NCBI GenBank assembly: GCA_030041175.1
Contig: JASHOK010000030.1
Span: 12,401-76,400, forward strand
Length of the DNA stretch: 64,000 nucleotides
Source of the DNA: Thermoplasmata archaeon
GTDB lineage: Archaea; Thermoplasmatota; Thermoplasmata; Lutacidiplasmatales; UBA184
Reading direction: 5' to 3'
Part shown: piece after piece, positions 4,279-45,827 of the stretch
How positions within the stretch are numbered: the stretch's first letter is position 1
Layout: each line of letters opens with the position of its first letter
Notes under the pieces: generated by a model
Database searches by the model: none
Seen by the model: the letters and a program-made list of their open reading frames with translations, nothing else
Told to the model about the DNA's origin: nothing
Translations under genes and position numbers: made by a program

Positions 4279-4503
4279 ATGGCGCTCGAGGACGAATTGG
4301 GGCCGCAGGCGGTCAAGATTTACAAGGCGATGAAGGACATGGGCTTCCTGACCGAGGATAAGATGGGCACGGCCGAGCGCATTACGATGGGCGCGAAGCT
4401 GCCCAAGAACATGGTCATGAACGCCCTTCAAGAGTTGCAGGCGAAGGGCTACGCCCGGCGCAAGGTGCGAGAGAAGGCCGCCGGCTATTACCTGGTTCGC
4501 TGA
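4279..4503 (+). CDS. Small (74 aa) winged-helix-like DNA-binding protein, function unknown
   Basis: MALEDELGPQAVKIYKAMKDMGFLTEDKMGTAERITMGAKLPKNMVMNALQELQAKGYARRKVREKAAGYYLVR. The helix-turn-helix plus beta-wing pattern (GYYLV) is present, codon usage is good, and there is its own TATA candidate. Confidence 0.6.
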   Translation: MALEDELGPQAVKIYKAMKDMGFLTEDKMGTAERITMGAKLPKNMVMNALQELQAKGYARRKVREKAAGYYLVR

Positions 4504-4507
4504 GCCT

Positions 4508-5461
4508 CTACGACTCGGCCCCCGCCGACCGGGGACCGAGCAGGCGCTCCAGCAAGCGACTCGTAGAGCGTAGCGTGACCTCGGTAACGGCACTGACGCG
4601 AGCGACCTGCGCACGGGATCGGCGTTCACCGCCGCGTTCTGAGGCGATGTAGATCAACGCGGCAACGAGACCGTGCGCCGACAAGCCCGAAACCTCCGGA
4701 CTTGTCTCCGTCTCCTTGAGCATCGTTTCGACAGAGGTCCGTACGTGCGGAGACAGGGCGAGTTCCTGCGCATAGCGCGCGAGGTAGACCCGAGGGTCTA
4801 CCGAGGGCACGATCGTGGACATTCCGCGACAGGCGACCTTGAACGCCCGGCCGACCTCAGAGCGCCGGGCACCGAGCACCTTGGAAACCTCGCCCAGAGT
4901 ACGAGGAACTGCGAAGCGGCGGCAGGCGGCGTAGACGGAAGCGCCGACGGCGGCCACCTGGCTGCGGCCCCGGTAGAGTCCCCGCTGGGTCGCATCCCGG
5001 AAGAATCGCTCCGCCTCGGAACGGATGACCGGCGGCAACGCCAGCCGATCGGAGGCCATGGCGATCGAGTCCCGGGCCTGGGAGCGCTCGAGGGGGTCTT
5101 CGAGTGCGCGTACCGTCTGGCGTTGTGCGACTCGCCGGAGGTGCTGGAATTCGTATCTCCGCTGCCAATCGAGCGGCCGGCCCTGTCCGTCCCGGGTGCC
5201 CTTCAGGATCGTCCCCAACTCGCGCCGAGAGGCCCCTGGAAGGCTGAACGGCCCAATCCCACGACCGGAACCCTGGGCACCAGGCGCGTCCCGTACTGGA
5301 GGTCCCGGGGTTACCAGCTCTGAACCTTCGAACACGAGTCCGCAGTCGGCACAGTGCGTCTCCAGACTGGCCGGATCCTGTACCCGTCGGCGGCTACCGC
5401 ACAGGGAGCAGGCGAGGAGGCTTGGTTCCCCCTCTGCCGGGGGCGTCCCCTGGTCGGACAC
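4508..5461 (-). CDS. tfb: Transcription initiation factor IIB (TFB)
   Basis: Zn-ribbon CSLCGSRRRVQDPASLETHCADCG, then two cyclin-fold repeats (IAMASDRLALPPVIRSEAERFFRDA...GRSQVAAVGASVYAACR...; YLARYAQELALSPHVRTSVETMLKE...LVAALIYIAS). No ATG lies upstream of the ribbon. The GTG at 5459-5461 sits about 25-33 nt downstream of the TATA element at 5485-5494, giving a 317-aa leaderless product. The 444-aa track ORF would overrun that promoter. Confidence 0.88.
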   Translation of the reverse strand: MSDQGTPPAEGEPSLLACSLCGSRRRVQDPASLETHCADCGLVFEGSELVTPGPPVRDAPGAQGSGRGIGPFSLPGASRRELGTILKGTRDGQGRPLDWQRRYEFQHLRRVAQRQTVRALEDPLERSQARDSIAMASDRLALPPVIRSEAERFFRDATQRGLYRGRSQVAAVGASVYAACRRFAVPRTLGEVSKVLGARRSEVGRAFKVACRGMSTIVPSVDPRVYLARYAQELALSPHVRTSVETMLKETETSPEVSGLSAHGLVAALIYIASERGGERRSRAQVARVSAVTEVTLRSTSRLLERLLGPRSAGAES

Positions 5462-5484
5462 GGTCGAGAGGCGAGACCTTGAAG

Positions 5485-5494
5485 TATATTTATA
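5485..5494. promoter_or_regulatory. Bidirectional TATA element TATATTTATA shared by tfb (minus) and the YkgJ-like gene (plus)
   Basis: Plus strand reads TTTATA (5489-5494), 34 nt before TTG 5528. Minus strand reads TATAAATA, 26-33 nt before GTG 5461. It is the only AT-rich block between the two divergent genes. Confidence 0.6.
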
Positions 5495-5527
5495 GAACTG
5501 ACTAAAGCCGCCCCGCTCGAACGGTCT

Positions 5528-6631
5528 TTGCCCCCGAGGTCCTGGGGCTCTCCGGGTGCTCAGGTGCTTGCGGGGGCAGACCTCTCCCTGCTCTCTGGCT
5601 TTCGATTTCAGTGCCTCCCCGGGTGCGGTCTCTGCTGCTTCACAACCCCGGCCGTCCGCCCATCCGAACGTCGACGGCTCGTCCAGCTGGAACCGGAGGC
5701 TCCTTTTCTCGATCGTGCAGACGGCTGGAGCCTTGTGGCCAGCCGCCCTGATGGCGGTGCTTGCCACTTCCTCCGGGACCTTCGGTGTTCTTGCCACGAC
5801 GTCCGCCCCGCCACTTGTGCGGAATTCCCCATAGTAGCCCACGCGTCGGACCGACTGCAGCTGAGCTTGGTCCTCGGCTGCCCCGGCGTCGAATTAGCCG
5901 CTCTGGACCGATGGGCTGAGGGTGTGCCTCCGGACGCACCGGCCGACGGGTTGGAAACCGAGCTGGCCGCCGTGGCCAGGGAGGTGGAGCGGGCGCTCGC
6001 CGAGGGGGAGCTGGCCAGAGCTGCGCGCCGATGGCACCGCCTGAGAGCGAGCATCCGGCGCTCAAGTGGAGGGGCCAGGGGGTCGGACCCGCGCGCTCCG
6101 CTGTACCCGGTGTCGGAAGATCTCATCCCCACCGACCTGGCCAAAGCGCAGTTGCTCGATACCGAGGGTGATCGCATCGATCTCGACGGGCTACCGCTCG
6201 CCTACGATGCTCGGTGGGGCCGCTTGGCATGGCGGAGTCACCCCGGGGGGGTCGAGTTCCTCTCCTTGGAGGCAACGGGAGGCGCCGGCCCCGCCCGCGA
6301 GGTCCTCCCCCTTCCCGCCCGCTCGCCGGGGCTTGACGGACCGGCGAGACTCCGCCTTCGCGGTTACCTCGGATACCGGCTAGCTCGAGACCAGAGTCTC
6401 GGGACGGCATACGAGGAACTCCGTAGTACGGGAGAGTCCCAGGTCTCCCTTCGGGACGTACTTCTGGCGGACCTCCAGTCGACCGCCGGTCAGGTACTTT
6501 CGCTGGCGATCCTACGCCGAGCGCTGACCACGGATCGCCGGGGCCCACTGACCCGGGAGGATATCGACCTCGGGATCCGAGCGACGGATATGGATGCGCT
6601 CGACCGTCCCACCGTAGGTCTCCGGCTGTAG
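5528..6631 (+). CDS. YkgJ/UPF0153-like cysteine-cluster (CxxCxxCC) protein with a long C-terminal extension
   Basis: N-terminal FQCLPGCGLCC...GGACHFLRDLRCSCHDVRPATCAEFP matches the putative Zn/Fe-chelating CxxCxxCC domain pattern. TTG start at 5528; GTG alternative at 5564. Confidence 0.6.
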   Translation: MPPRSWGSPGAQVLAGADLSLLSGFRFQCLPGCGLCCFTTPAVRPSERRRLVQLEPEAPFLDRADGWSLVASRPDGGACHFLRDLRCSCHDVRPATCAEFPIVAHASDRLQLSLVLGCPGVELAALDRWAEGVPPDAPADGLETELAAVAREVERALAEGELARAARRWHRLRASIRRSSGGARGSDPRAPLYPVSEDLIPTDLAKAQLLDTEGDRIDLDGLPLAYDARWGRLAWRSHPGGVEFLSLEATGGAGPAREVLPLPARSPGLDGPARLRLRGYLGYRLARDQSLGTAYEELRSTGESQVSLRDVLLADLQSTAGQVLSLAILRRALTTDRRGPLTREDIDLGIRATDMDALDRPTVGLRL

Positions 6632-31966: not shown

Positions 31967-32959
31967 ATGAAGGTCGCGCTCGCTTCGCAGAACTGGTCGA
32001 GTCCCATGACCAGCATGTACTCGTATTCGACGGATGTCCTACGCGCCCTGCAGAGCGTCGGAGTGGATGCCGTCCCCCTTCCGATTTCATCCCTCGTGGG
32101 CATGCCCGTTGGAGGCTTACTGCTCCCACTGGCGCGACGGACGTTCCGCTCTTACCCGAACCGGGAAGGTAGGCTGGTCCATCACATCGACCAGGATGCG
32201 TGGCGAGGGGTGGACGTCGTCACCGTTCACGACCTCTATCCATTTCGGGACACCCGGTTTGCCGACCGGTTCATTCGATCCGCAGTCCGGACCGCCGTGC
32301 GACGGGCTCGGCGTATCGTGACCGACTCTCGCGCAACGCTCGACGAGCTCGCGGTCCGGTTTCCGGCATTTACTCGCGGAAAGATGCAGGTGGTCCCCAT
32401 CCCGCACGCGCCGGTGTCCGCCGACCGCCGTGAACCAGTCTACGATGCTCTCTGGATCGGGCGGAATGCTCCGAACAAGCGTCTCGAAGAATACGTCGCC
32501 TTGGCCCAACGGTTTCCGAGAGCCCGTTTCGCTGTGCGCTGGTCCCGGAGTCCGGGTCGGCCGGAAGCCAACGCCGAGCTCACTCGCTCCATCGGCGCGA
32601 CGGCCAACATCCAGAATTTTACGCAATTCCTGGAGGAGGCCCAAATGGACGAGCTCTACCGATCCACCCGGGTCTACGTTTCAACCTCGACCTACGAGGG
32701 CTGGCATATCCCGGTGATGGCCGCCTATCTGCGGGGCTCTCACATCGTCATCCCCCGGATCGAGCCGTACGTTTCCATCTACCCGGAGCCCACGGCATTC
32801 TGGTACGACCCGACCAGTCGGCCCTCGCTCGACGAGGCCTTCGGTGCCGCGCTGGCCGCGCCCTTCCGCCCCCCGTCGGCTCAGGTGGCAGACTATGTTT
32901 CGTACTCCCGGGTGGGGTCGCAGCTCCGGTCGGTCTACGAGGAGCTCGCCCCCCGATAG
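31967..32959 (+). CDS. Glycosyltransferase, GT-B fold (GT4-like)
   Basis: VTVHDLYPF...ARRIVTDSRATLDEL...VYVSTSTYEGWHIPVMAAYLRGSHIVIP (E-x7-E-like region). Confidence 0.75.
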   Translation: MKVALASQNWSSPMTSMYSYSTDVLRALQSVGVDAVPLPISSLVGMPVGGLLLPLARRTFRSYPNREGRLVHHIDQDAWRGVDVVTVHDLYPFRDTRFADRFIRSAVRTAVRRARRIVTDSRATLDELAVRFPAFTRGKMQVVPIPHAPVSADRREPVYDALWIGRNAPNKRLEEYVALAQRFPRARFAVRWSRSPGRPEANAELTRSIGATANIQNFTQFLEEAQMDELYRSTRVYVSTSTYEGWHIPVMAAYLRGSHIVIPRIEPYVSIYPEPTAFWYDPTSRPSLDEAFGAALAAPFRPPSAQVADYVSYSRVGSQLRSVYEELAPR

Positions 32960-32965
32960 GGCGGA

Positions 32966-33066
32966 CGCCCTGGTCGGGAGTTTCGCCTCCGGGCGGACCC
33001 GGACGGCTTCGAACCCGAGTTCCAAGCTCGACAGGCTTAGATCCTAGACCGCTAGACTACCAGGGC
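32966..33066 (-). tRNA. tRNA-Asp (anticodon GUC) with a 28-nt non-canonical intron in the T loop (position 59/60; intron 32980..33007)
   Basis: Hand fold: acceptor GCCCTGG/CCAGGGC; D arm GTCT-AGCGGTCTA-GGAT; anticodon arm TAAGC-CTGTCGA-GCTTG; variable GAAC; T stem TCGGG/CCCGA; discriminator G. The T loop TTCGAA|intron|T becomes TTCGAAT after excision. Length is 101 nt, or 73 nt spliced. The junctions form an hBHBh' motif. Confidence 0.85.
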
Positions 33067-33220
33067 ACCGCGCGCGGCCCTAACGGTCGAGAGTAATCAA
33101 CCTTCCGGCCACCAACGGCCCCACGGTTCTCGGTAACGGGCCCGGGGCCCCATCCACTGCGAGTCGACCTCGTGGTTTATCTATCACCTGGCCGCCATCG
33201 GAGAAACCCCGAGGCCCGCG

Positions 33221-33376
33221 ATGGAGCGTGCGGAAGCATGGGCGACCTTCATCCTCGTCATCGTCGGTGCCCTCGTCCTGCTCGCCTTCATGGGGGTCTT
33301 GGTGGGGGCCTGGTTGGACCATACGTTTGCCGGGATCCTCCATACCCTCGCTTCGCCGCTGGTTTGGTCCCGGTGA
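33221..33376 (+). CDS. Possible 51-aa single-TM micro-protein
   Basis: Own translation: MERAEAWATFILVIVGALVLLAFMGVLVGAWLDHTFAGILHTLASPLVWSR. It falls below the 60-aa track cutoff and has no homology evidence. Confidence 0.3.
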   Translation: MERAEAWATFILVIVGALVLLAFMGVLVGAWLDHTFAGILHTLASPLVWSR

Positions 33377-33533
33377 CCGGCAGGGTCCACGGCGGCCTCG
33401 AACGCGTGGAAATTTCGCAGCCGCGGAAACCCTTTTAAGACCCGCCGGACTCTGTTTCTCCGAATGCGTTCGACTCGGGCGGAGGGCTAACGGCCCCTCC
33501 TGTTTGCTCTCGAATTTTTGCTTCGTCCGACTC

Positions 33534-34061
33534 ATGGACCTCTACGAGGCGATACGGGCGTCCCGCCCTTGCTCGAATTTCCAGTCGCGGCCGATCCCCG
33601 AGGAGAAGGTCCGTGCGGTCGTCGCCGCGGCCCGGCTCGCCCCTTCGCAGAGCAATCTTCAACCGTGGCGATTCGTGGTCGTGCGGGACGAGGAGCTCAA
33701 ACACCAGATCGCGCAGGCATGCCCTCGGGGCAAGCTGGTCTCGGAAGCCCCGGTCGTGATCGTGGCGTTCGCGATGGAGGAGGACATTCCGATGACCGTG
33801 GGCGGGTACATCTCCTCCTATCCCCTCGACACGGCGGTCGCCGTGCACCAGCTCCGCCTCGCGGCCGTCGCGGAGGGCCTGGCCACGAACTGGATCGTCG
33901 ACTTCCACGAAGCCAAGATCCGACGGGCCCTCCAGGTACCGGAGGGGATCCACCCGATCGCGGTGATCCCGCTCGGCTACGCCGGGGAGACGAACGGGTC
34001 CGCGGCGGAGGGCCGGAAGAGCCCCGACGAGATCATCGCCTACGACCGGTACCCCTGGTAG
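33534..34061 (+). CDS. Nitroreductase family protein (175 aa)
   Basis: ATG 33534 gives MDLYEAIRASRPCSNFQSRPIPEEKVRAVVAAARLAPSQSNLQPWRFVVV...IPLGY, the classic NADH oxidase/flavin reductase fold signature. The upstream 100 aa of the track ORF were rejected. Confidence 0.85.
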   Translation: MDLYEAIRASRPCSNFQSRPIPEEKVRAVVAAARLAPSQSNLQPWRFVVVRDEELKHQIAQACPRGKLVSEAPVVIVAFAMEEDIPMTVGGYISSYPLDTAVAVHQLRLAAVAEGLATNWIVDFHEAKIRRALQVPEGIHPIAVIPLGYAGETNGSAAEGRKSPDEIIAYDRYPW

Positions 34062-34695: not shown

Positions 34696-36348
34696 TCAGT
34701 CTTCGCCGAAGTCCCCGCCGCCCATGCCGCCGGGGCCGCCCGGACCGCCGGGTCCGCCCGCCGGTGGAGAGGTCGCCTTCGAAGCGATGACGTCGTCGAT
34801 GCGGAGGATCATGACCGCCGCATCCGTTGCCGACTCGATCGCCTGACGCCCCACCCGGATCGGCTCGACCACATGCAGCTGCTTCATGTCGTCGACCTTG
34901 CCCGAGTGCACGTTGACGCCGGAGAACTTCTTGCCGTTCTTGTGCGACTGCCGGAGCTCGATCAGGATGTCGATCGGGTCCAGTCCCGCGTTCTCGGCCA
35001 GTGTCCGGGGCACCGTCTCCAGCGCCTCGGCGAAGGTCTCAAACGCCATCTGTTCCCGGCCGCCGACCTTGGCCGCCTCGTCGCGCAGGTGGAGGGCGAT
35101 CTCTTCCGCGGAGGCGCCGCCTCCGTAGACGATCTTGCCGTCTTCGACCGCCACGGCAACCACGTTGAGCGCGTCGTCGACGGACCGCTCGATCTCGTCG
35201 AGGACATGCTCGGTGCCGCCGCGCAGCAGAACCGACACGGCCTTGGCGTTCTTGCAGCCGGTCACGAAGGTCAGCGAGTCCTCACCGATCTTCCGCTCCT
35301 CGACCAGACCCGCCGTGCCGACGTCGTCAGGGGTCAGCTCGCTGGCCTTCGAGACGATGTTCGCACCGGTCGCCTTGGCAAGCTTCTCCATGTCCGACTT
35401 CTTGACTCGGCGGACGGCGTAGATGCCGTCCTTGGCCAGGAAGTGCTGGGCCAGGTCGTCGATGCCCTTCTGGCAGAACACCACGTTCGCCCCGGACTTC
35501 TGGACCTGGTCGACCATCCGGTGCAGCATGTTCTCCTCCTCCTGGAGGAAGGCGTTCAGCTGGGAGGGTTCATTGATCTCGATCTTGGCGTCGATCTCGG
35601 TCTTCTTGATCTCGAGTGCGGCATCCAGAAGGGCGATCTTCGGCGTCTCGACGCGCGGGGGCATCCCCGAGTGGACCTTCTCCTTGTCCACGATGACGCC
35701 CTCGATAAGCTGGGAATCCGTGATCGCTCCGCCCTGCTTCTTGACGATCTGAATGTCGTCCAGGTCGACCGAGTAGCCCTTCTCGTGCTTCTCGGCGACC
35801 GACTGGACGGCCTTCACGGAGATATCGGCCAGCAGGTCCCGGTTGAAGGAGACCGACTTGGACGACATGGAGGTCACGGCGACTCGCTTGAGGGTGTCCG
35901 GGTCCTCGATCTTGACCGGCTCCGAGATCCCGTTGAGCACCTCGAGGGCCTTCTGGGCGGCCAGCCGGTACCCCTGCGAGATGATCGTCGGGTGGATGTT
36001 CTGCTCGATCAAGGCCTCGGCGCGCTTCAACAGCTCGCCCGCGAGGATGACGGCGGTGGTCGTACCATCGCCGGCCTCTTGGTCCTGGGTCTTCGCAACC
36101 TCGACCAGCATCTTGGCGGCCGGGTGCTCGACATCCATTTCCTTCAGGATCGTGACGCCATCGTTCGTGACCACGACATCGCCCATCGAGTCGACGAGCA
36201 TCTTGTCGAGGCCACGCGGCCCGAGGGTCGAGCGAACAGCGTCCGCGATCGCCTTCGCGGCCGCGATGTTGTTCGACAGCGCGCCGCGCCCCCGTTCCCG
36301 CTTGGTTCCTTCCTTTAGCACCAGAATCGGTGTCTGTCCTGTCAGCAT
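34696..36348 (-). CDS. ths: Thermosome subunit (group II chaperonin)
   Basis: [45 protein letters not shown]...[15 protein letters not shown]..., and the C-terminal [20 protein letters not shown] tail. Confidence 0.95.
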
Positions 36349-36405
36349 GGTTTTCGCTTCTCCCGAGTATCCTCTCGGTTGTCAGGAGCGCTGAATATGC
36401 ACTTG

Positions 36406-36413
36406 TATTTAAA
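36406..36413 (-). promoter_or_regulatory. Candidate TATA box (minus strand TTTAAATA) for the thermosome gene
   Basis: This is the only AT-rich octamer in the 180-nt spacer. It lies 58-65 nt upstream of ATG 36348, implying a leader of about 30 nt. Confidence 0.45.
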
Positions 36414-36527
36414 CAGAGCGCCCCGCGCTGCTTCGTGGGCCACAGTCCCTCGGAAAGCGGGCAGGGCGGGAGGTCGGAGCCACGTCCTGGGTGCCGATCG
36501 AGGCCGCCGCAGCATCGTCGGGGCCGT

Positions 36528-37967
36528 CTACGGTGGCTCGGGGGCAAAGCGGGCCGTGAAGTGCCGGAGGTGTTCGGGCGCTTCCACGATCCGCATTCCG
36601 CGGACGGAGGCTCGTCGGTCCCAGACCCGGCAGACGGTGTCCGCCACGAACCTGAGATGGCTCTCCGTGTACACCCGGCGGGGGATGGCGAGCCGAAGGA
36701 GCTCGAGGGGGTTCGACGAGGGCGCGGTGACGTCCTCGAACATGATCGCACCCACCTCGACCGACCGTACGCCACCCTCCCGGTAGAGTTCGACGGCGAG
36801 GGCCTGCCCGGGCAGCTGCGGAGGGCGGAGGTGCGATAGGAAGCGCGTCACATCGAGATACACTCCATGCCCCCCCGGCGGCTGCATGATCGGGACCCCG
36901 TGGGCAGTCAATCTCCCGGCCAAGAACCGAACCTGGCCCAATCTGTGCTCGAGGTAGTCCTCCATCAGCGCCTCTTGGAGCCCGATCGATATCGCTTCCA
37001 GGTCTCGGCGAGCGAGGCCCCCATAGGTCGGAAACCCCTCGAAGACGATCAGTTCCTCCTTGAATCGGGCCGCGAGCCCGGCGTTCCGGGTGGCGATGAA
37101 ACCCCCCATGTTGACCAGCCCATCCTTTTTGGCGCTCATCGTCGCCCCGTCGGCCAGGTCACAGACCTCGCGCGCGATTTCGCGGACGCTTCGCGAAGAT
37201 TGCCCGGTTTCCCGCTCCCGGATCAGGTAGGCATTCTCCGCCCAGCGGCAGATATCCAGATAGAGCGGCTTCTGGAAGCGACGGCAGGTCTCGGAGACGG
37301 CCTTCAGATTCGCGAGAGAGACCGGCTGGCCGCCACCCGTGTTGTTCGTCAGCGTGACCATGACCAAAGGAACGTGGCTCCCTTGGGGCGACTCCAATAG
37401 CTGCTGGAGCTTCGGCACATCGACATTGCCCTTGAAGGGGTGCGGATCGTCACAGGCGTACGCCTCCGGGATCGCCAGGTTGAGCGGCCGGGCGCCGGCG
37501 CGGAGTACGTGCGCCTGCGTGGTATCGAAGTGCATGTTGTTCGGGACGATGTCTCCCGGTTTGGCGAGCTGCGAAAACAGGAGATGCTCCGCGGCTCGGC
37601 CCTGGTGCGCCGGGATGATGTGCGGGAATCCCGTGAGCTCCCGCACGGTGGCTTCGAAATGCACAAAGTTCCGGCTGCCCGCGTAGGCCTCGTCGCCGAC
37701 CATCAGCCCGGCCCACTGCCGATCGCTCATGGCGGCAGTACCGGAGTCCGTGAGCAGGTCGATGTACACCTCTTCCGAGAGGAGGTTGAACAGATTGTAT
37801 CCGGCGCGCTCCAGGGCCCGCTCGCGCTCCGCGCGAGAGGGCAGCCGGATCGATTCGACCACCTTAATGCGATACGGCTCGATGGGCGCCGTCGGGTCCG
37901 CCCCTTCCGGTTCCACGAGAGCCGGCGAGCGCACCGACTCCCTTAGCCTCTGCCGTGCGGCCGACAT
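36528..37967 (-). CDS. Beta-eliminating lyase (tryptophanase / tyrosine phenol-lyase family, PLP-dependent)
   Basis: EPYRIKVVESIRLPSRAERERALERAGYNLFNLLSEEVYIDLLTDSGTAAMSDRQWAGLMVGDEAYAGSRNF...SAKKDGLVNMGGFIA (PLP Lys). The GTG at 37916 may be the true start; it gives an N-terminus length similar to E. coli TnaA. Confidence 0.85.
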   Translation of the reverse strand: MSAARQRLRESVRSPALVEPEGADPTAPIEPYRIKVVESIRLPSRAERERALERAGYNLFNLLSEEVYIDLLTDSGTAAMSDRQWAGLMVGDEAYAGSRNFVHFEATVRELTGFPHIIPAHQGRAAEHLLFSQLAKPGDIVPNNMHFDTTQAHVLRAGARPLNLAIPEAYACDDPHPFKGNVDVPKLQQLLESPQGSHVPLVMVTLTNNTGGGQPVSLANLKAVSETCRRFQKPLYLDICRWAENAYLIRERETGQSSRSVREIAREVCDLADGATMSAKKDGLVNMGGFIATRNAGLAARFKEELIVFEGFPTYGGLARRDLEAISIGLQEALMEDYLEHRLGQVRFLAGRLTAHGVPIMQPPGGHGVYLDVTRFLSHLRPPQLPGQALAVELYREGGVRSVEVGAIMFEDVTAPSSNPLELLRLAIPRRVYTESHLRFVADTVCRVWDRRASVRGMRIVEAPEHLRHFTARFAPEPP

Positions 37968-39195
37968 CGACCGAGGACCGGGCCCGGGTCCCCGGTCGAA
38001 GGAGGGCGGTAGTCACTGGTCCGCGGCCGAGGAACCGTCCGAGCTCGTCGGCTTCCCGCTCGATCCCGTCGATGATGGAGCTTGAGAGCGGACCGAACGG
38101 CTCCACCCGTACCGTAGTGCTGGGACCGGCTGCCGCGTAACTCCACACACCGACTACTCGGCCGTCCACCAACAGCGCGGGGGCGATCCATCCCTGCGGG
38201 CGATAGAGACGGTGGTGCAGCGAGCGCGGTAGGAGCGCGGTCTTGTCCTCGTGCTGCAGCACGTAGGAGTCGAAGTATGGCAGCAGCCGGACCGACGGCG
38301 ACGGGAGCCGTGCGGATTCCAGCGCGGAGAGGTCGGACGCCAAGACCCAGCCTCGTTGCTCGCCGGTGTCGACCCCGGCCATTTCGGGAAGCAGACGGGA
38401 CCAAACTCGGGCCGCGTCCCGCAGCCGTAAGCCGGTCCACCAGGCGAAGTCGCGGAGCTGGGCCGGTCCGGCTACCCTAAGGTACCGGCGGAGCAGGTCG
38501 TCCTCAGCCTGGGGGACCGGGACATCCTCCCAGTGGGGGATCCAGGCGTCCGCCCGGATGTACTTCGGGACGTTCCCGGAGCCCGGAGTTACGCAGACTA
38601 CACCGTAAGCCCCGGCGAGGTGCAACAACCAGCCCGCCGGGAATGTTAGGCTACCGAACCCCACTGCCGGGACGTCCCGCCGGCTGCCCCAGCCCCCGCC
38701 GGGCCTCGAGGTCCTCTTGGCCCCGAGCAGGACTCCGACGCGGTCCGCGATGGCATCGACGGTGCATTCCTCGTCGAGCGATTGTAACAGGGCCGACGCC
38801 AGCCGGTGTACCTGGGCAGCGGAGTAGCCCCGACGGCGAACGTAGCCGACATCCCGATCCGCCCGGAGCGAAGTCCCTCGGACGAAGATCGATACCGCCT
38901 TGGCCGGCACCACGTGGAGGGTCCGCCGCATGCACCAGACCTTGACCAAGGACCGGGTCCGGGACAGCGCCCGGTCAACATCGGCAGGGGCCAACCCGCG
39001 GACGCGTGTGGCGAGGGAGAGCCGGGCCGCTGAGGCGAGCTGCGCGTGCACTCCGCCGATGTCGCCGGCCACGGCGACCATGGAGGACCGTGCTGCCCGA
39101 GCCAGCAGATGGTGCCGGTGCAGCCGGAATGCAGCGACCTGGGCCGGCTCGACCGATAGTGCGGGCCGGGCCCTGTTCTCTGGCTTCAAACGCAT
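37864..39195 (-). CDS. Winged-helix YcaQ/AlkZ-like (HTH_42, DUF1006) protein, candidate DNA glycosylase
   Basis: VAAFRLHRHHLL...GGVHAQLASAARLSLATRV...LVKVWCMRRTLHVVPA...FAWWTGL...YFDSYVLQHED matches the conserved blocks I recall for the YcaQ family. Confidence 0.65.
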   Translation of the reverse strand: MRLKPENRARPALSVEPAQVAAFRLHRHHLLARAARSSMVAVAGDIGGVHAQLASAARLSLATRVRGLAPADVDRALSRTRSLVKVWCMRRTLHVVPAKAVSIFVRGTSLRADRDVGYVRRRGYSAAQVHRLASALLQSLDEECTVDAIADRVGVLLGAKRTSRPGGGWGSRRDVPAVGFGSLTFPAGWLLHLAGAYGVVCVTPGSGNVPKYIRADAWIPHWEDVPVPQAEDDLLRRYLRVAGPAQLRDFAWWTGLRLRDAARVWSRLLPEMAGVDTGEQRGWVLASDLSALESARLPSPSVRLLPYFDSYVLQHEDKTALLPRSLHHRLYRPQGWIAPALLVDGRVVGVWSYAAAGPSTTVRVEPFGPLSSSIIDGIEREADELGRFLGRGPVTTALLRPGTRARSSVDVGRTAEAKGVGALAGSRGTGRGGPDGAHRAVSH

Positions 39196-39252
39196 GACTC
39201 CGCGGCAGGACGACGCGCGGCAGAACCCGGACCGTGACTACATGCCAGGGGC

Positions 39253-39690
39253 CTAACGACGCTTGGGACGCCGGCGAGGTGCGGCAGCCCGAGTGCGCGC
39301 TCGGCGGCGCCGGGGCTGGGCGCTCGGCATACGGGCTTCCCAGAGTGCGATGACGTTCCCTTCAGGGTCGGCGCCGATGAAGCTCCATCCCATTCCCGGG
39401 ACCTCCATCTTGGGGACAATCTGGGCGCCACCGGCCTGCTGGAAGCGAGCGATGGCCTCGTCGATGCGGTCGACGGAAACGAAGTTCCGGGGCCGGTCCT
39501 CCGCGCCCATGCGGCGATACATTCCACCGCCGACGCTCTTGCCTCGGGGCCCCGTCGAAATCAACCGGTAGTCCATGTCCGGCATGTCGGCCTTTGTGAA
39601 CGTCCACCCAAAGACCTCCGTATAGAAGCGAGAGAGACGATCCGGATCGGCGGCAGGTATCTCAAAGTGTACTATCGTCGAGATCGACAT
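39253..39690 (-). CDS. VOC/glyoxalase-fold protein with an Arg-rich C-terminal tail
   Basis: ATG (CAT at 39688-39690) gives MSISTIVHFEIPAADPDRLSRFYTEVFGWTF...GWSFIGADPEGNVIALWE, then PSAQPRRRRARTRAAAPRRRPKRR. Confidence 0.8.
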   Translation of the reverse strand: MSISTIVHFEIPAADPDRLSRFYTEVFGWTFTKADMPDMDYRLISTGPRGKSVGGGMYRRMGAEDRPRNFVSVDRIDEAIARFQQAGGAQIVPKMEVPGMGWSFIGADPEGNVIALWEARMPSAQPRRRRARTRAAAPRRRPKRR

Positions 39691-39803
39691 CGGGCGCACC
39701 CAGCACGGACAAGCTGTACACAGCCATAAAGCAGGCCGAGGGATGACACGACCCCGGCGCCCCGACAGCCCGAAGGTCCGGGGGCCGGCAGGGTAGGTCT
39801 GAG

Positions 39804-41366
39804 ATGGAACGCGACGGAAGGCGGGGCGATTCTGACCCACCCGTCCGACAGGCCGACCTTGAGGCAGCGGAGATCGTTGCCGCGACCTTCTACCTGCGGC
39901 GCAGGCACAGCTCGGAGGTTTTGTCGGCCTTGAATTCCTTCGGAAGCGCCCGACCGCACGATCGGAGGTATCTGAGGCGGGAGGAGTTCGCCGCCCGGTT
40001 CGGGGCTGACCCCGACGACATTGCGCTGGTCACCCGTTGGATCGGAGAGAGAGGGCTTGCGCTGGTCGCAGCTGACCCGGCGCGGCGGACCGTTCGCGTT
40101 CAGGGGCCGGCCAGTGCGTGGAACCGGGCGTTTCAGGTCGTGCTCGGACGCTACTCCCGCGGTCCCCGCCGATACATCGGGCACGAAGGGGAGCTCATCC
40201 TCCCGCCCGAGCTTGACGGACCGGTCGTGGCGGTGCTCGGACTCGACGCTCAGCCGGTTCTCCACACCCACTTCCGGATTGCCGCAGCCGGAACCGCCGG
40301 GTACCCTCCCGGACAAGTCGCCGGTGCCTACGACTTTCCCCCGGCTCAGAATGGGAACGGGCAGACCATCGGACTGCTCGAGTTTGGCGGAGGATACGCT
40401 CCGGGCGATCTCGCCACGTTCTTCCAGCAGGCGGGCCTGCCGCTGCCGAACGTTGTCTCCGTTTCCGTCGACGGCGCCTCCAACGCGCCGACCGGGGACC
40501 CGGACGGGCCGGACGCCGAGGTCGAGCTGGACATCGAGTTGGCGGGTGCTCTCGCCCCGGGCGCGACGATCGTCGTCTACTTTGCACCCAACTCCGAGCA
40601 AGGCTTCGTCGACGCCCTGTCGACCGCCATTCACGATGCGACGAACAAGCCGTCCATCGTTTCCGTGAGCTGGGGCGGACCCGAGCCGACGTGGACCTCG
40701 GCCACCCTCACCGCCTTCAGCCAGGCGGCCGAAGACGCCACCGGTCTCGGTGTCACGGTGATCGCCGCGGCCGGGGACGATGGCGCGAGCGACGGAGAAG
40801 GCGGCGGAGCGCTTGCCGTCGACTTTCCCGCCTCAGGACCGTACGTCCTCGGATGCGGGGGCACCCGCCTGCTGCTGTCCGCGGAGACCATCACCGAAGA
40901 GGTGGTCTGGAACGACCTCGCGGAAGGCGAGGGAGCTACCGGCGGCGGAGTCAGCCAGGTCTTTCCCCTTCCGTCGTACCAAGCCGATGTCGGAGTGCCG
41001 ACTGGGGAGGGTGGCTTCGAAGGACGAGGGGTGCCGGACGTGGCCGGGGACGCCGACCCCGAAACCGGCTACGCTGTGTTTGTGGACGGATCGTCAGCCG
41101 TCATTGGCGGCACCAGCGCCGTAGCTCCGCTCTGGGCGGCGCTCGTGGCACGGCTCAACGAAGCCCTCGGAGCCCCGGTCGGGTTCCTCCAGCCTCTCCT
41201 GTATGCGCCGGCCGAGGAGGCTACGTTCCATGACATCACGGAGGGGAACAACGGCGGCTTTGATGCCGGCCCCGGGTGGGATGCCTGTACCGGCTGGGGA
41301 TCGCCCGACGGGACCGCCCTGCTGTCGGTCCTACAGGGCTCTGGGCCGTCGAAGCCGGCGCCCTGA
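39804..41366 (+). CDS. Peptidase S53 (sedolisin/kumamolisin-like) with a pro-kumamolisin activation domain
   Basis: The prodomain carries (RYLRREEFAARFGADPDDIALVTRWIGERGL). The catalytic domain carries AEVELDIE (Glu/Asp), SVSWGGPE and IGGTSAVAPLWAALVARLN (Ser nucleophile). Confidence 0.85.
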   Translation: MERDGRRGDSDPPVRQADLEAAEIVAATFYLRRRHSSEVLSALNSFGSARPHDRRYLRREEFAARFGADPDDIALVTRWIGERGLALVAADPARRTVRVQGPASAWNRAFQVVLGRYSRGPRRYIGHEGELILPPELDGPVVAVLGLDAQPVLHTHFRIAAAGTAGYPPGQVAGAYDFPPAQNGNGQTIGLLEFGGGYAPGDLATFFQQAGLPLPNVVSVSVDGASNAPTGDPDGPDAEVELDIELAGALAPGATIVVYFAPNSEQGFVDALSTAIHDATNKPSIVSVSWGGPEPTWTSATLTAFSQAAEDATGLGVTVIAAAGDDGASDGEGGGALAVDFPASGPYVLGCGGTRLLLSAETITEEVVWNDLAEGEGATGGGVSQVFPLPSYQADVGVPTGEGGFEGRGVPDVAGDADPETGYAVFVDGSSAVIGGTSAVAPLWAALVARLNEALGAPVGFLQPLLYAPAEEATFHDITEGNNGGFDAGPGWDACTGWGSPDGTALLSVLQGSGPSKPAP

Positions 41367-41369
41367 GGC

Positions 41370-42227
41370 TTACTTCCCAAAGTTCCGGTGCCGGAGCTGG
41401 AAAGCACGAATGGCCCTCAGGAACTCGGTCTTCGTGAGGCCGGGCCACATGACATCGGAGAAGTAGAGCTCCGAATAGGCGACCTGCCACAACAGGAAAT
41501 TGGAGATCCGCTCCTCTCCGCTGGTCCGGAGCACGAGGTCGGGGTCCGGCAGATTCGCGGTGTACAGGTTCTCGGAAACTTTCCGGTCATCGATCTGGTC
41601 CGGCCTGAGCGTCCCCGCAGCGACCTGCTCGGCGAGGCGCCGGATCGCGTGGACGATCTCCTCTCGGCCACCGTAGGCGATTGCCACGTTGTACCGGTAC
41701 TCGGAATAGTCCTGCGTCGCCCGTTCCGCTAGCTCGATCGCCGCCACGACGTCGGGGCGGAGAACGGCTCGGTTCCCGATCGCCGCCACGTGGATCCGGT
41801 GCCGGTGAACCCGGGGGTCCTTGGCAATGTCCGTGAAGGCTTCGGCAAAGAGGTCCATCAGCTGCGACACCTCCTCCGGGTCTCGGTCCAGGTTCTCGGT
41901 CGAGAGCGCGTAGACGGTGAGAATCCGGACGCCCACCTCGAGGCACCAGTTCAGCAGCTCCTCGAGCTTGTCCTTCCCGCGCAGATGTCCCTCCTCCACG
42001 AGAAGCCCGTGGCCGCGAGCGTAGCGTCGGTTCCCATCCATGATCAGGCCCAGGTGTCGGGGCACGGGCTCTTGGCGGATCAACTTCAGGAGCCGACGCT
42101 CGGTGCTGTCCCGAAGAGCGTCCGCGATGATGCTCGACAGGTACGGCGGCCGTCGTTCCTCGCGCGTCTCCGAGGGTTCGTCGGTCGCCACGCCGGTTGT
42201 ACGTCCTGCGGGGGTTAAGGGTTCCAC
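41370..42227 (-). CDS. uppS: Cis-prenyltransferase (undecaprenyl-diphosphate synthase family)
   Basis: PRHLGLIMDGNRRYA, LTVYALSTENLDR, RTSGEERISNFLLWQVAYSELYF. Confidence 0.9.
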   Translation of the reverse strand: MEPLTPAGRTTGVATDEPSETREERRPPYLSSIIADALRDSTERRLLKLIRQEPVPRHLGLIMDGNRRYARGHGLLVEEGHLRGKDKLEELLNWCLEVGVRILTVYALSTENLDRDPEEVSQLMDLFAEAFTDIAKDPRVHRHRIHVAAIGNRAVLRPDVVAAIELAERATQDYSEYRYNVAIAYGGREEIVHAIRRLAEQVAAGTLRPDQIDDRKVSENLYTANLPDPDLVLRTSGEERISNFLLWQVAYSELYFSDVMWPGLTKTEFLRAIRAFQLRHRNFGK

Positions 42228-42326
42228 CCTCGCAACCGCGACGGCCAGTCGACCGGACGTCGTAGGTGCGACCGTGCGCCGTCTGTCGACCGCAACTTAA
42301 TTGAGCCTCACCGTCGCCAGTCTGGA

Positions 42327-45623: not shown

Positions 45624-45698
45624 GGGCCCATAGCTTAGGCTGGCTGGAGCACCCGGCTGATAACCGGGAGGTCGTCGGTTCAAATCCGACTGGGCCCA
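45624..45698 (+). tRNA. tRNA-Ile (anticodon GAU)
   Basis: Hand fold: GGGCCCA-TA-GCTT-AGGCTGGCTG-GAGC-A-CCCGG-CTGATAA-CCGGG-AGGTC-GTCGG-TTCAAAT-CCGAC-TGGGCCC-A. All stems are complementary. 75 nt, no encoded CCA. Confidence 0.92.
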
Positions 45699-45827
45699 CG
45701 TTCCCTGAAGGAATTGTCCTCCCGGCACAATTTCTGAATTGTCACCCCGTCACCGCCGTTGACGCCGCGGGCCGGTTCGGTCCCTGGACTGAGTGCCGAC
45801 CCGGGCCCTCACTCGCCCGCGCGTGGG

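Follow-up and report, generated by a model that had tools for sequence, protein, structure and literature searches.

A tRNA-Asp gene with a split T loop

The stretch of DNA analysed here, 64,000 nucleotides (nt) of contig JASHOK010000030.1 from a Thermoplasmata archaeon and referred to below as the window, carries on its minus strand what its sequence identifies as the aspartate transfer RNA (tRNA) gene of a soil archaeon, with a T loop that is split by a 28-nt intron. From 33066 down to 32966 this strand reads GCCCTGG TA GTCT AGCGGTCTA GGAT C TAAGC CTGTCGA GCTTG GAAC TCGGG TTCGAA / GCCGTCCGGGTCCGCCCGGAGGCGAAAC / T CCCGA CCAGGGC G, with slashes at the two exon-intron junctions. An earlier sequence-only reading had assigned the strand to tRNA-Asp, and every stem and loop is as that reading described, in agreement with the cloverleaf drawn by ARAGORN. 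The gene is made up of the following parts.

32966..33066, minus strand: complete precursor tRNA-Asp(GUC), 101 nt, without an encoded CCA; a perfect 73-nt cloverleaf after splicing, with exons identical in seven species known from metagenome-assembled genomes (MAGs)
33008..33066, minus strand: 5' exon, tRNA positions 1-59 (acceptor 5' strand, D arm, anticodon arm, variable region, T stem 5' strand and T loop U54-A59)
33030..33032, minus strand: anticodon GUC within the loop CUGUCGA (ARAGORN: anticodon at position 35)
32980..33007, minus strand: intron, 28 nt, GCCGTCCGGGTCCGCCCGGAGGCGAAAC, between tRNA positions 59 and 60
32966..32979, minus strand: 3' exon, tRNA positions 60-73 (U60, T stem 3' strand CCCGA, acceptor 3' strand CCAGGGC, discriminator G73), unchanged in the 110 complete metagenome loci listed

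Excision of 32980..33007 leaves 73 nt that ARAGORN folds as tRNA-Asp(gtc), with seven of seven acceptor pairs, all five pairs of the T stem TCGGG/CCCGA, a T loop TTCGAAT and the discriminator G. This fold bears out the earlier placement of a 28-nt intron at position 59/60 whose removal yields a canonical T loop and a 73-nt tRNA, and ARAGORN showed the same restoration of a canonical tRNA upon excision in relatives of the window. The D stem of the spliced tRNA consists of G-U, U-A, C-G and U-G pairs, and the anticodon stem has five base pairs (bp). The G10-U25 pair, which in yeast is an identity element for Asp, is invariant in the alignment of the window with 38 clade loci described below.

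Around the two junctions the precursor can form a strict bulge-helix-bulge (BHB) motif of the class hBHBh', in which a central helix joining exon to intron through the pairs U54-A26, U55-A25, C56-G24 and G57-C23 is framed by two bulges and two outer helices. Its elements lie as follows.

33010..33013, minus strand: exon strand of the central 4-bp BHB helix (U54 U55 C56 G57), paired in 100% of alignment cells
32982..32985, minus strand: intron strand of the central 4-bp BHB helix (C23 G24 A25 A26); forms in the clade are CGAA, CGGA, CGGG and CGAG
33007..33009, minus strand: 5' 3-nt bulge (A58, A59 and intron G1), predicted cleavage between 33008 and 33007
32979..32981, minus strand: 3' 3-nt bulge (intron A27 and C28, and U60), predicted cleavage between 32980 and 32979
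32986..33006, minus strand: intron helix h' with C2-G22 and C3-G21, bulged G4, U5-A20 and a CCGGG/CCCGG hairpin with loop UCCG

Helix h is the 5-bp T stem, and h' comprises two pairs, a bulged G and six further pairs, so that the strict hBHBh' proposed earlier is present with its 4-bp helix, two 3-nt bulges, T stem and intron hairpin all as described. With both bulges whole in the window and in nearly all relatives, the motif lies outside the relaxed class (hBH, HBh' or BHL). Folding with the central helix enforced gives -47.1 kcal/mol against an unconstrained minimum of -50.6 kcal/mol, and a gap of 3.5 kcal/mol is usual for a BHB that is recognised by a protein.

On the unspliced DNA, both ARAGORN and the Rfam tRNA model call only a 72-nt tRNA-Asp at 32995..33066 that ends inside the insert, with an Rfam score of 29.2 bits against a threshold of 29. 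Among the 38 intron-bearing clade loci, ARAGORN in default mode reported nothing in 21 and a mis-bounded tRNA-Asp in 17, and of the 13 intron-bearing loci put to the Rfam model, one reached the gathering score. Where other archaea have an intron-less tRNA-Asp whose 3' half is identical, the model gives 58.5-60.6 bits against that threshold of 29. The earlier expectation that default finders miss such genes thus holds for the relatives, whereas in the window itself both tools flag a tRNA-Asp with wrong boundaries. The archaeal mode of tRNAscan-SE 2 has its search for non-canonical introns switched on by default (PMC8450103), and tRNAscan-SE in archaeal mode was used in the study of the Lutacidiplasmatales (PMC9287336). 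The only tRNA-Asp gene seen in an abundant uncultured soil clade is invisible or mis-bounded for default finders, with the consequence that tRNA counts used to judge MAG quality, and analyses of codon usage and tRNA sets, can be wrong without a BHB-aware archaeal mode.

Conservation of the insert in genomes and metagenomes

A scan of 185,579 species, each represented by one genome, with the pattern TCGGGTTCGAA-N{0,30}-TCCCGACCAGGGCG returned 55 loci. Thirty-eight of these are MAGs labelled Thermoplasmata or Thermoplasmatota that carry a 27-30 nt insert at 59/60, among them Candidatus Lutacidiplasma silvani AcS3-62 and several more from the same study of acidic Scottish soil. The spliced product is tRNA-Asp(GUC) in all 38 and equals the 73 nt of the window in seven. 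Membership of the MAGs in one clade rests on record titles and common gene order; the order of genes around the tRNA is common to the window and most of the 38 loci, at 70-80% nucleotide identity, and the species of the window is not among the representatives scanned. On these comparisons the lineage of the window is a soil Thermoplasmata clade, similar to Lutacidiplasmatales and not Thermoproteales. The order Lutacidiplasmatales (formerly TMEG) has been described with genomes of about 69% guanine plus cytosine (GC) and about 2.1 Mb, in a report that leaves tRNA introns unmentioned (PMC9287336).

The inserts differ in sequence and agree in architecture. In all 41 inserts of the genome loci the central helix is paired at four of four positions and both bulges have 3 nt, with sequences that are almost all different, and the window intron itself has no match among the inserts of the genome scan or of the metagenome loci listed. 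Such recurrence of a 4-bp helix and two 3-nt bulges across differing introns is, by this comparison, beyond chance. We aligned the window and the 38 clade loci with MAFFT (39 loci, 38 distinct sequences) and counted pairs against a user-specified structure combining the cloverleaf with the BHB: 95.6% of alignment cells were paired, compared with 27-56% when the 3' partners were slid by 1-3 columns, and the covariation score was 0.221 versus 0.097 for shuffles, none of 500 of which reached the observed value. All eight modelled intron-helix pairs have changes on both sides among the 38 distinct sequences, in 36 of which the first h' pair is standard. The intron strand of the central helix shows only A-to-G changes, opposite U54 and U55, and for this reason its pairing is never lost. 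The third base of the 5' bulge varies freely among G, C, U and A, and the 3' bulge is constant in size in every readable locus, ACU being its most frequent form.

Mean identity over the 39 loci is 96.6% in the exons (nine variants), 48.6% in the intron and 39.7% in its hairpin part, with 38 distinct introns. Within the exons, the anticodon-stem pair 29:41 has undergone a compensatory A-U to G-C swap in 19 of the 38 distinct sequences, and the exons are, on this pattern, under strong purifying selection. Families of intron sequence run parallel to the exon variants (the window, for example, falls with L001, L004, L041, L044 and L055), from which it appears that the intron was gained once and then inherited vertically.

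Metagenomes of the JGI were scanned with a pattern placed wholly in the 5' exon, at positions 17-48, which covers the clade-specific D and anticodon arms. This yielded at least 120 loci, 110 of them complete. The insert is present at 59/60 in all 110 complete loci listed, with a length of 28-34 nt and a mode of 33, and no intron-less copy occurs among them under this search by the 5' exon pattern alone. The T loop is always TTCGAA/T and the 3' exon always CCCGACCAGGGCG in these loci, though both lie outside the search pattern. The central helix is paired at four positions in 108 and at three in two; counting the genome loci with the listed metagenome loci, all four pairs of the helix are present at 147 of 149 clade loci. 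The 110 loci hold 101 distinct introns. Seventy-six of the loci have just one G-C pair as the intron helix beside the 5' bulge, and beyond it an internal loop and then a 7-bp hairpin; the window intron is one of the tidier versions of the clade motif. What stays invariant in this comparison is the 4-bp helix, a closing pair and the size of each bulge. Introns of 33 nt, the most frequent class in the metagenome loci (L057-L175) with 52 of the 110 listed, exceed the 30-nt limit of the genome scan, and the census of 38 species therefore undercounts the clade.

Intron-less matches of the genome scan came from Woesearchaeota, Micrarchaeota, Aenigmatarchaeota, Brockarchaeota, Methanosarcinales and three other Thermoplasmata MAGs, and in none of these matches from the species-representative genomes was a 5' exon of the clade type found. 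The three Thermoplasmata MAGs without a T-loop intron are L002 (3997-4070), L003 (3192-3264 region, plus strand) and L009 (1560-1632). L003 (KM4338-14) has a 16-nt intron at 37/38 instead; L002 and L009 have no intron, reach an Rfam score of 58.5 bits and match the spliced sequence of the window at 66 of 73 positions. All three are possible outgroups for dating the gain of the 59/60 intron.

Conservation extends upstream of the gene, where two elements stand out on the minus strand.

33093..33104, minus strand: putative archaeal promoter with a box, AAGGTTGATTAC, resembling a transcription factor B recognition element (BRE) and TATA element, at about -38 to -27 from the mature 5' end
33080..33083, minus strand: conserved TA(G/C) at about -17 to -14, with an AT fraction of 0.7-0.8 at these columns

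Relatives keep an AT-rich box, AAGGTTCAT(A/G)AG, at the same distance within DNA that is otherwise 67-69% GC, and the 60 nt upstream are GC-rich in all of them save for this box and the TA(G/C). From position and composition we infer that the box would serve as BRE/TATA element and the TA(G/C) as start site with a short leader.

Predicted splicing, its enzyme and competing readings

Our structural and comparative observations make it very probable that this locus is an expressed tRNA-Asp(GUC) gene of a soil Thermoplasmata archaeon, with a vertically inherited 28-nt intron at 59/60 that forms a strict BHB. In the proposed pathway, U54-G57 of the T loop would pair in the precursor with the intron 3' segment CGAA to form the 4-bp helix between the two 3-nt bulges, with the T stem stacked against one end of this helix and the intron helix and hairpin against the other. 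EndA would cleave 3' of A59 and 3' of intron C28, which yields 2',3'-cyclic phosphate and 5'-OH termini, and RtcB would ligate the exons and circularise the intron, steps that are based on established archaeal tRNA splicing (PMC6379350, PMC4090602). Exon joining would link ...GGGUUCGAA to UCCCGACCAGGGCG(CCA), with the ends trimmed by RNase P and RNase Z and CCA then added, since the gene does not encode it. Since the precursor would have U54-G57 paired with the intron, only splicing would allow the T loop to form, be modified and dock with the D loop.

The sequence-only reading had concluded that the intron implies an endonuclease with relaxed positional specificity. No such enzyme is required, as both bulges are kept and a strict BHB is cut wherever it is located. 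Archaeal EndAs recognise the BHB itself, including those in rRNA, mRNA, D loops, T loops and acceptor stems (PMC6379350, PMC5829648), and the broad-specificity (alpha-beta)2 or epsilon2 EndA is needed only for relaxed motifs that miss a bulge, namely hBH and HBh' (PMC6379350). Given the strict motif, removal should be within reach of every EndA type, and so of the narrow alpha'2 form that the lineage is expected to have. Cluster II Euryarchaeota, including Thermoplasmata, have been reported to possess only alpha'2 EndA (PMC5829648), and the enzyme of T. acidophilum is alpha'2 with narrow specificity (PMC6379350). We expect the EndA of the clade to be of this type, and a narrow enzyme would be expected to enforce just such near-perfect upkeep of the motif as the clade shows. 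EndA occurs in all Archaea (PMC6379350) and should therefore be encoded elsewhere in the host genome; an M. jannaschii EndA query (identical to PDB 1A79 over residues 9-179) gave no tblastn match in the window or the loci.

Several considerations weigh against the main interpretation of an expressed gene with a spliced intron. In the genome-scan pattern the T arm and the acceptor 3' strand were set in advance and the intron could have at most 30 nt, which inflates exon conservation, and the resulting ascertainment bias is corrected only partly by the metagenome scan with its at least 120 loci. Score support for the spliced sequence consists of the ARAGORN fold and of proxy Rfam scores from intron-less relatives. 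Splicing, the exact cleavage sites and the circular intron are predictions from the motif, and a divergent second tRNA-Asp gene is possible beyond the genome portions examined. The processing enzymes were likewise not encountered: EndA and RtcB are absent from the 44 called genes of the window by Pfam (PF01974/PF02778 for EndA), neither was found in 1.17 Mb of clade DNA (125 EndA queries for EndA), and a profile built from five EndA sequences and run against a protein collection gave no clade EndA among the best 120 of 5344 matches. Those best 120 are alpha4, epsilon2-like or low-GC alpha'2 proteins of other lineages.

Other accounts of the locus were weighed against these data. Were the gene an intron-less 72-nt tRNA-Asp at 32995..33066, with the downstream CCCGACCAGGGCG coincidental, it would be the version that ARAGORN reports and that Rfam places barely over its threshold; it would also have an acceptor mismatch and a G-U pair, three paired positions in its T stem and a 6-nt T loop. 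Calls of this type are absent in relatives or have inconsistent 3' ends, with Rfam failing in 12 of 13, and the 3' exon dismissed as coincidence is invariant among the 110 listed metagenome loci, which leaves this account close to untenable. Very improbable, too, is a pseudogene, that is, a tRNA-Asp inactivated by the 28-nt T-loop insertion with a working copy elsewhere. The unspliced Rfam score of just 29.2 bits would suit it, as would a second tRNA-Asp copy, which is possible elsewhere in the genome. However, the exons are almost invariant in 38 species and 110 listed metagenome loci, the insert keeps its structure at 49% identity, the anticodon stem carries compensatory changes and the upstream box is conserved, and no intron-less gene with a clade-type 5' exon was seen in the 185,579 species-representative genomes or the 110 listed loci. 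It is just as hard to credit that the insert is retained and the mature tRNA keeps a 28-nt extra T-loop hairpin. The insert does fold as a stable hairpin, but retention would require neither that the intron 3' CGRR pair with U54-G57 nor that exactly two unpaired intron bases precede U60 and one follow A59, and these constraints of an EndA substrate hold in 147 of 149 clade loci. A tRNA that kept U54-G57 sequestered would moreover lose the elbow between T loop and D loop, which is universal in tRNA.

The alternative with most in its favour accepts the intron and differs on the enzyme, holding that removal needs a broad-specificity EndA, whether (alpha-beta)2, epsilon2, or alpha4 or alpha'2 with an extra specificity loop. 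Non-canonical introns cluster in lineages that possess enzymes of this kind (PMC5829648, PMC3239211), the single pair and internal loop beside the 5' bulge in 76 of the 110 listed metagenome loci are less ideal than the textbook hBHBh', and the EndA of the clade itself was not found in the 1.17 Mb of clade DNA or among the best 120 of 5344 profile matches. Nevertheless, the window keeps both 3-nt bulges along with the 4-bp helix, as do 147 of 149 clade loci, a broad enzyme is needed only where a bulge is missing (PMC6379350), Thermoplasmata have been reported with alpha'2 alone (PMC5829648), and strict upkeep of the full motif throughout the clade fits a narrow enzyme. We consider a need for broad specificity distinctly unlikely, and retain the reading of a strict-motif intron that an ordinary EndA of the lineage would remove.

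Genomic setting and relation to known tRNA introns

The window has a GC content of 63-70% throughout, mostly 65-68%. Convergent with the tRNA is a glycosyltransferase gene at 31967..32959 (plus strand); further neighbours encode a nitroreductase, a Ham1-family pyrophosphatase and a thermosome subunit (34696..36348, minus strand), and upstream neighbours are a methylthioribose-1-phosphate isomerase/eIF-2B-family gene and a phosphofructokinase gene. An archaeal host is evident from the thermosome gene, and an exact look-up of the Ham1 protein gave no database entry. The rest of the window holds ordinary housekeeping and metabolic proteins (Pfam, 44 called genes). In many relatives an undecaprenyl-diphosphate-synthase-family gene directly adjoins tRNA-Asp. 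In the window this gene lies at 41370..42227 (minus strand, within 36400-42230), and about 8 kb separate the two, occupied by the nitroreductase, Ham1 and thermosome genes, a beta-eliminating lyase (36528..37967) and a sedolisin-like peptidase (39804..41366). The gap, set against adjacency in the relatives, suggests a lineage-specific rearrangement or insertion.

Two open reading frames that overlap or abut the tRNA, 32681-33025 (minus strand, 114 aa) and 33080-33535 (minus strand, 151 aa), fail a coding-composition filter based on third- and second-position GC and are probably not genes. Elsewhere in the window, 45624-45699 is a tRNA-Ile(GAU) without an intron (Rfam, 66.9 bits), and an Rfam 'Plastid-ycf2' match opposite to it is merely its antisense and no real element; a permissive Rfam scan found no further tRNA fragments in the window. 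At 4326-4378 (plus strand), in a gap between called genes, there is a weak match to the archaeal C/D-box small RNA sR44 (23.8 bits against a threshold of 45, E = 0.13), which could be a guide RNA or a chance similarity.

The window and the DNA of the genome and metagenome loci were also searched with a generic script for BHB motifs at 59/60, which among Thermoplasmata loci found tRNA-Asp only; matches in L020 and L083 lack a tRNA fold and were rejected. Outside this class, tRNA-Asp(GUC) genes of two Woesearchaeota MAGs (L013, JBDROB010000035.1, approximately 6180-6327, plus strand; L040, JAZDHV010000027.1, approximately 5460-5607, plus strand) and of one Thermoproteota MAG (L052, JAWCDE010000008.1, 4882-4921, minus strand, with the gene reaching about 85 nt further upstream) share with the window the T arm, acceptor, 59/60 site, 4-bp helix and 3-nt bulges. 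They differ in having unrelated intron sequences (29 nt and AT-rich; 15 nt) and a second intron in the anticodon loop, and their 59/60 introns are, on this comparison, probably independent gains. In both Woesearchaeota genes a 17-nt intron at 37/38 accompanies the 29-nt intron, whose central helix is paired at four of four positions. Other tRNA-like genes of these loci have BHB-compatible 59/60 inserts of 25-44 nt together with anticodon-loop introns, with T arms at 5825 (plus), 2443 (minus) and 6460 (plus) in L013, the first of which folds as tRNA-Tyr after excision, and at 5152 (plus) and 3120 (minus) in L040; with several such inserts, T-loop introns look common in these DPANN genomes. The gene in L052 has a 33-nt intron in its anticodon loop and a 15-nt intron, AGCATATGCCGAAAA, at 59/60, which means that the same site of the same tRNA is occupied in a third phylum.

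Position 59/60 is a listed site of non-canonical tRNA introns (PMC4090602), and ARMAN-2 has introns there in tRNA-Cys, with a relaxed motif, and in tRNA-Pro, with a strict one (PMC3239211), so the kind of element is already known. The novelty lies in which lineage hosts the intron and in its distribution, all sampled members of the clade having one strict T-loop intron in tRNA-Asp; we found no paper describing a 59/60 tRNA-Asp intron of this Thermoplasmata clade. Non-canonical tRNA introns are thereby extended to an order of Thermoplasmata, outside the usual examples in Thermoproteales, Thaumarchaeota and DPANN. The clade offers at least about 140 natural variants of one strict BHB at a site other than the anticodon (38 distinct introns in genomes and at least 101 in metagenomes), which amount to data on what EndA tolerates, with helix H and the bulge sizes fixed and h' flexible. 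Understanding of the splicing mechanism itself is unchanged.

Selection, as opposed to neutral persistence, might have kept the T-loop intron across this whole order of soil Thermoplasmata, a proposal that we think unlikely. It is raised by three circumstances: the intron was always present and never lost in the clade loci examined (genome and listed metagenome), its length is tightly confined to 27-34 nt, and the narrow alpha'2 EndA is the sole type expected in the lineage. If the proposal were true, the intron could break the segment from T arm to 3' end, a common attachment site of integrases and mobile elements, or could impose an obligatory splicing checkpoint ahead of T-loop modification and elbow formation. 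In that case the probably independent use of 59/60 in the tRNA-Asp of Woesearchaeota and in that of Thermoproteota would indicate that an intron at this site is repeatedly advantageous.

Among known systems, the canonical archaeal intron at 37/38 has an identical local geometry, since 7 nt is the length of the anticodon loop and the T loop alike. There, as in the window, a 5-bp exon stem is followed by a helix of 4 bp that joins loop bases one to four with the 3' part of the intron, one bulge consists of the next two loop bases and intron base 1, and the other of the last two intron bases and the last loop base. The same processing enzymes are expected for the 59/60 intron; the difference is that the canonical intron blocks formation of the anticodon loop, whereas in the window precursor formation of the T loop would be blocked.

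A published match in position is found in ARMAN-2 (Ca. Micrarchaeum acidiphilum), whose pre-tRNA-Pro(GGG) and pre-tRNA-Cys(GCA) are interrupted at the same T-loop site (Fujishima et al. 2011, PMC3239211). The tRNA-Pro intron has a strict hBHBh' like that of the window and the same mechanism, EndA cleavage at two bulges, which is the one we infer for the window. ARMAN-2 differs in belonging to a DPANN phylum, in the tRNAs concerned, in the relaxed hBH motif of its tRNA-Cys intron and in its broad-specificity epsilon2 EndA; the window, by contrast, has the intron in tRNA-Asp and comes from a Thermoplasmata clade in which alpha'2 is expected and all sampled members carry the intron.

Thermoproteales and other Crenarchaeota likewise have BHB introns outside 37/38, with 59/60 included (Marck & Grosjean 2003; Sugahara et al. 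2008; PMC4090602), and these too are missed by standard finders without a BHB-aware mode (PMC8450103). Thermoproteales nevertheless show many introns per genome, often several per tRNA, with many relaxed motifs and evidence of recent transposition, whereas in about 1 Mb of DNA from the window clade one such tRNA gene was seen, with a single strict-motif intron. The pattern in the clade, as far as these loci portray it, fits one old gain followed by vertical descent.

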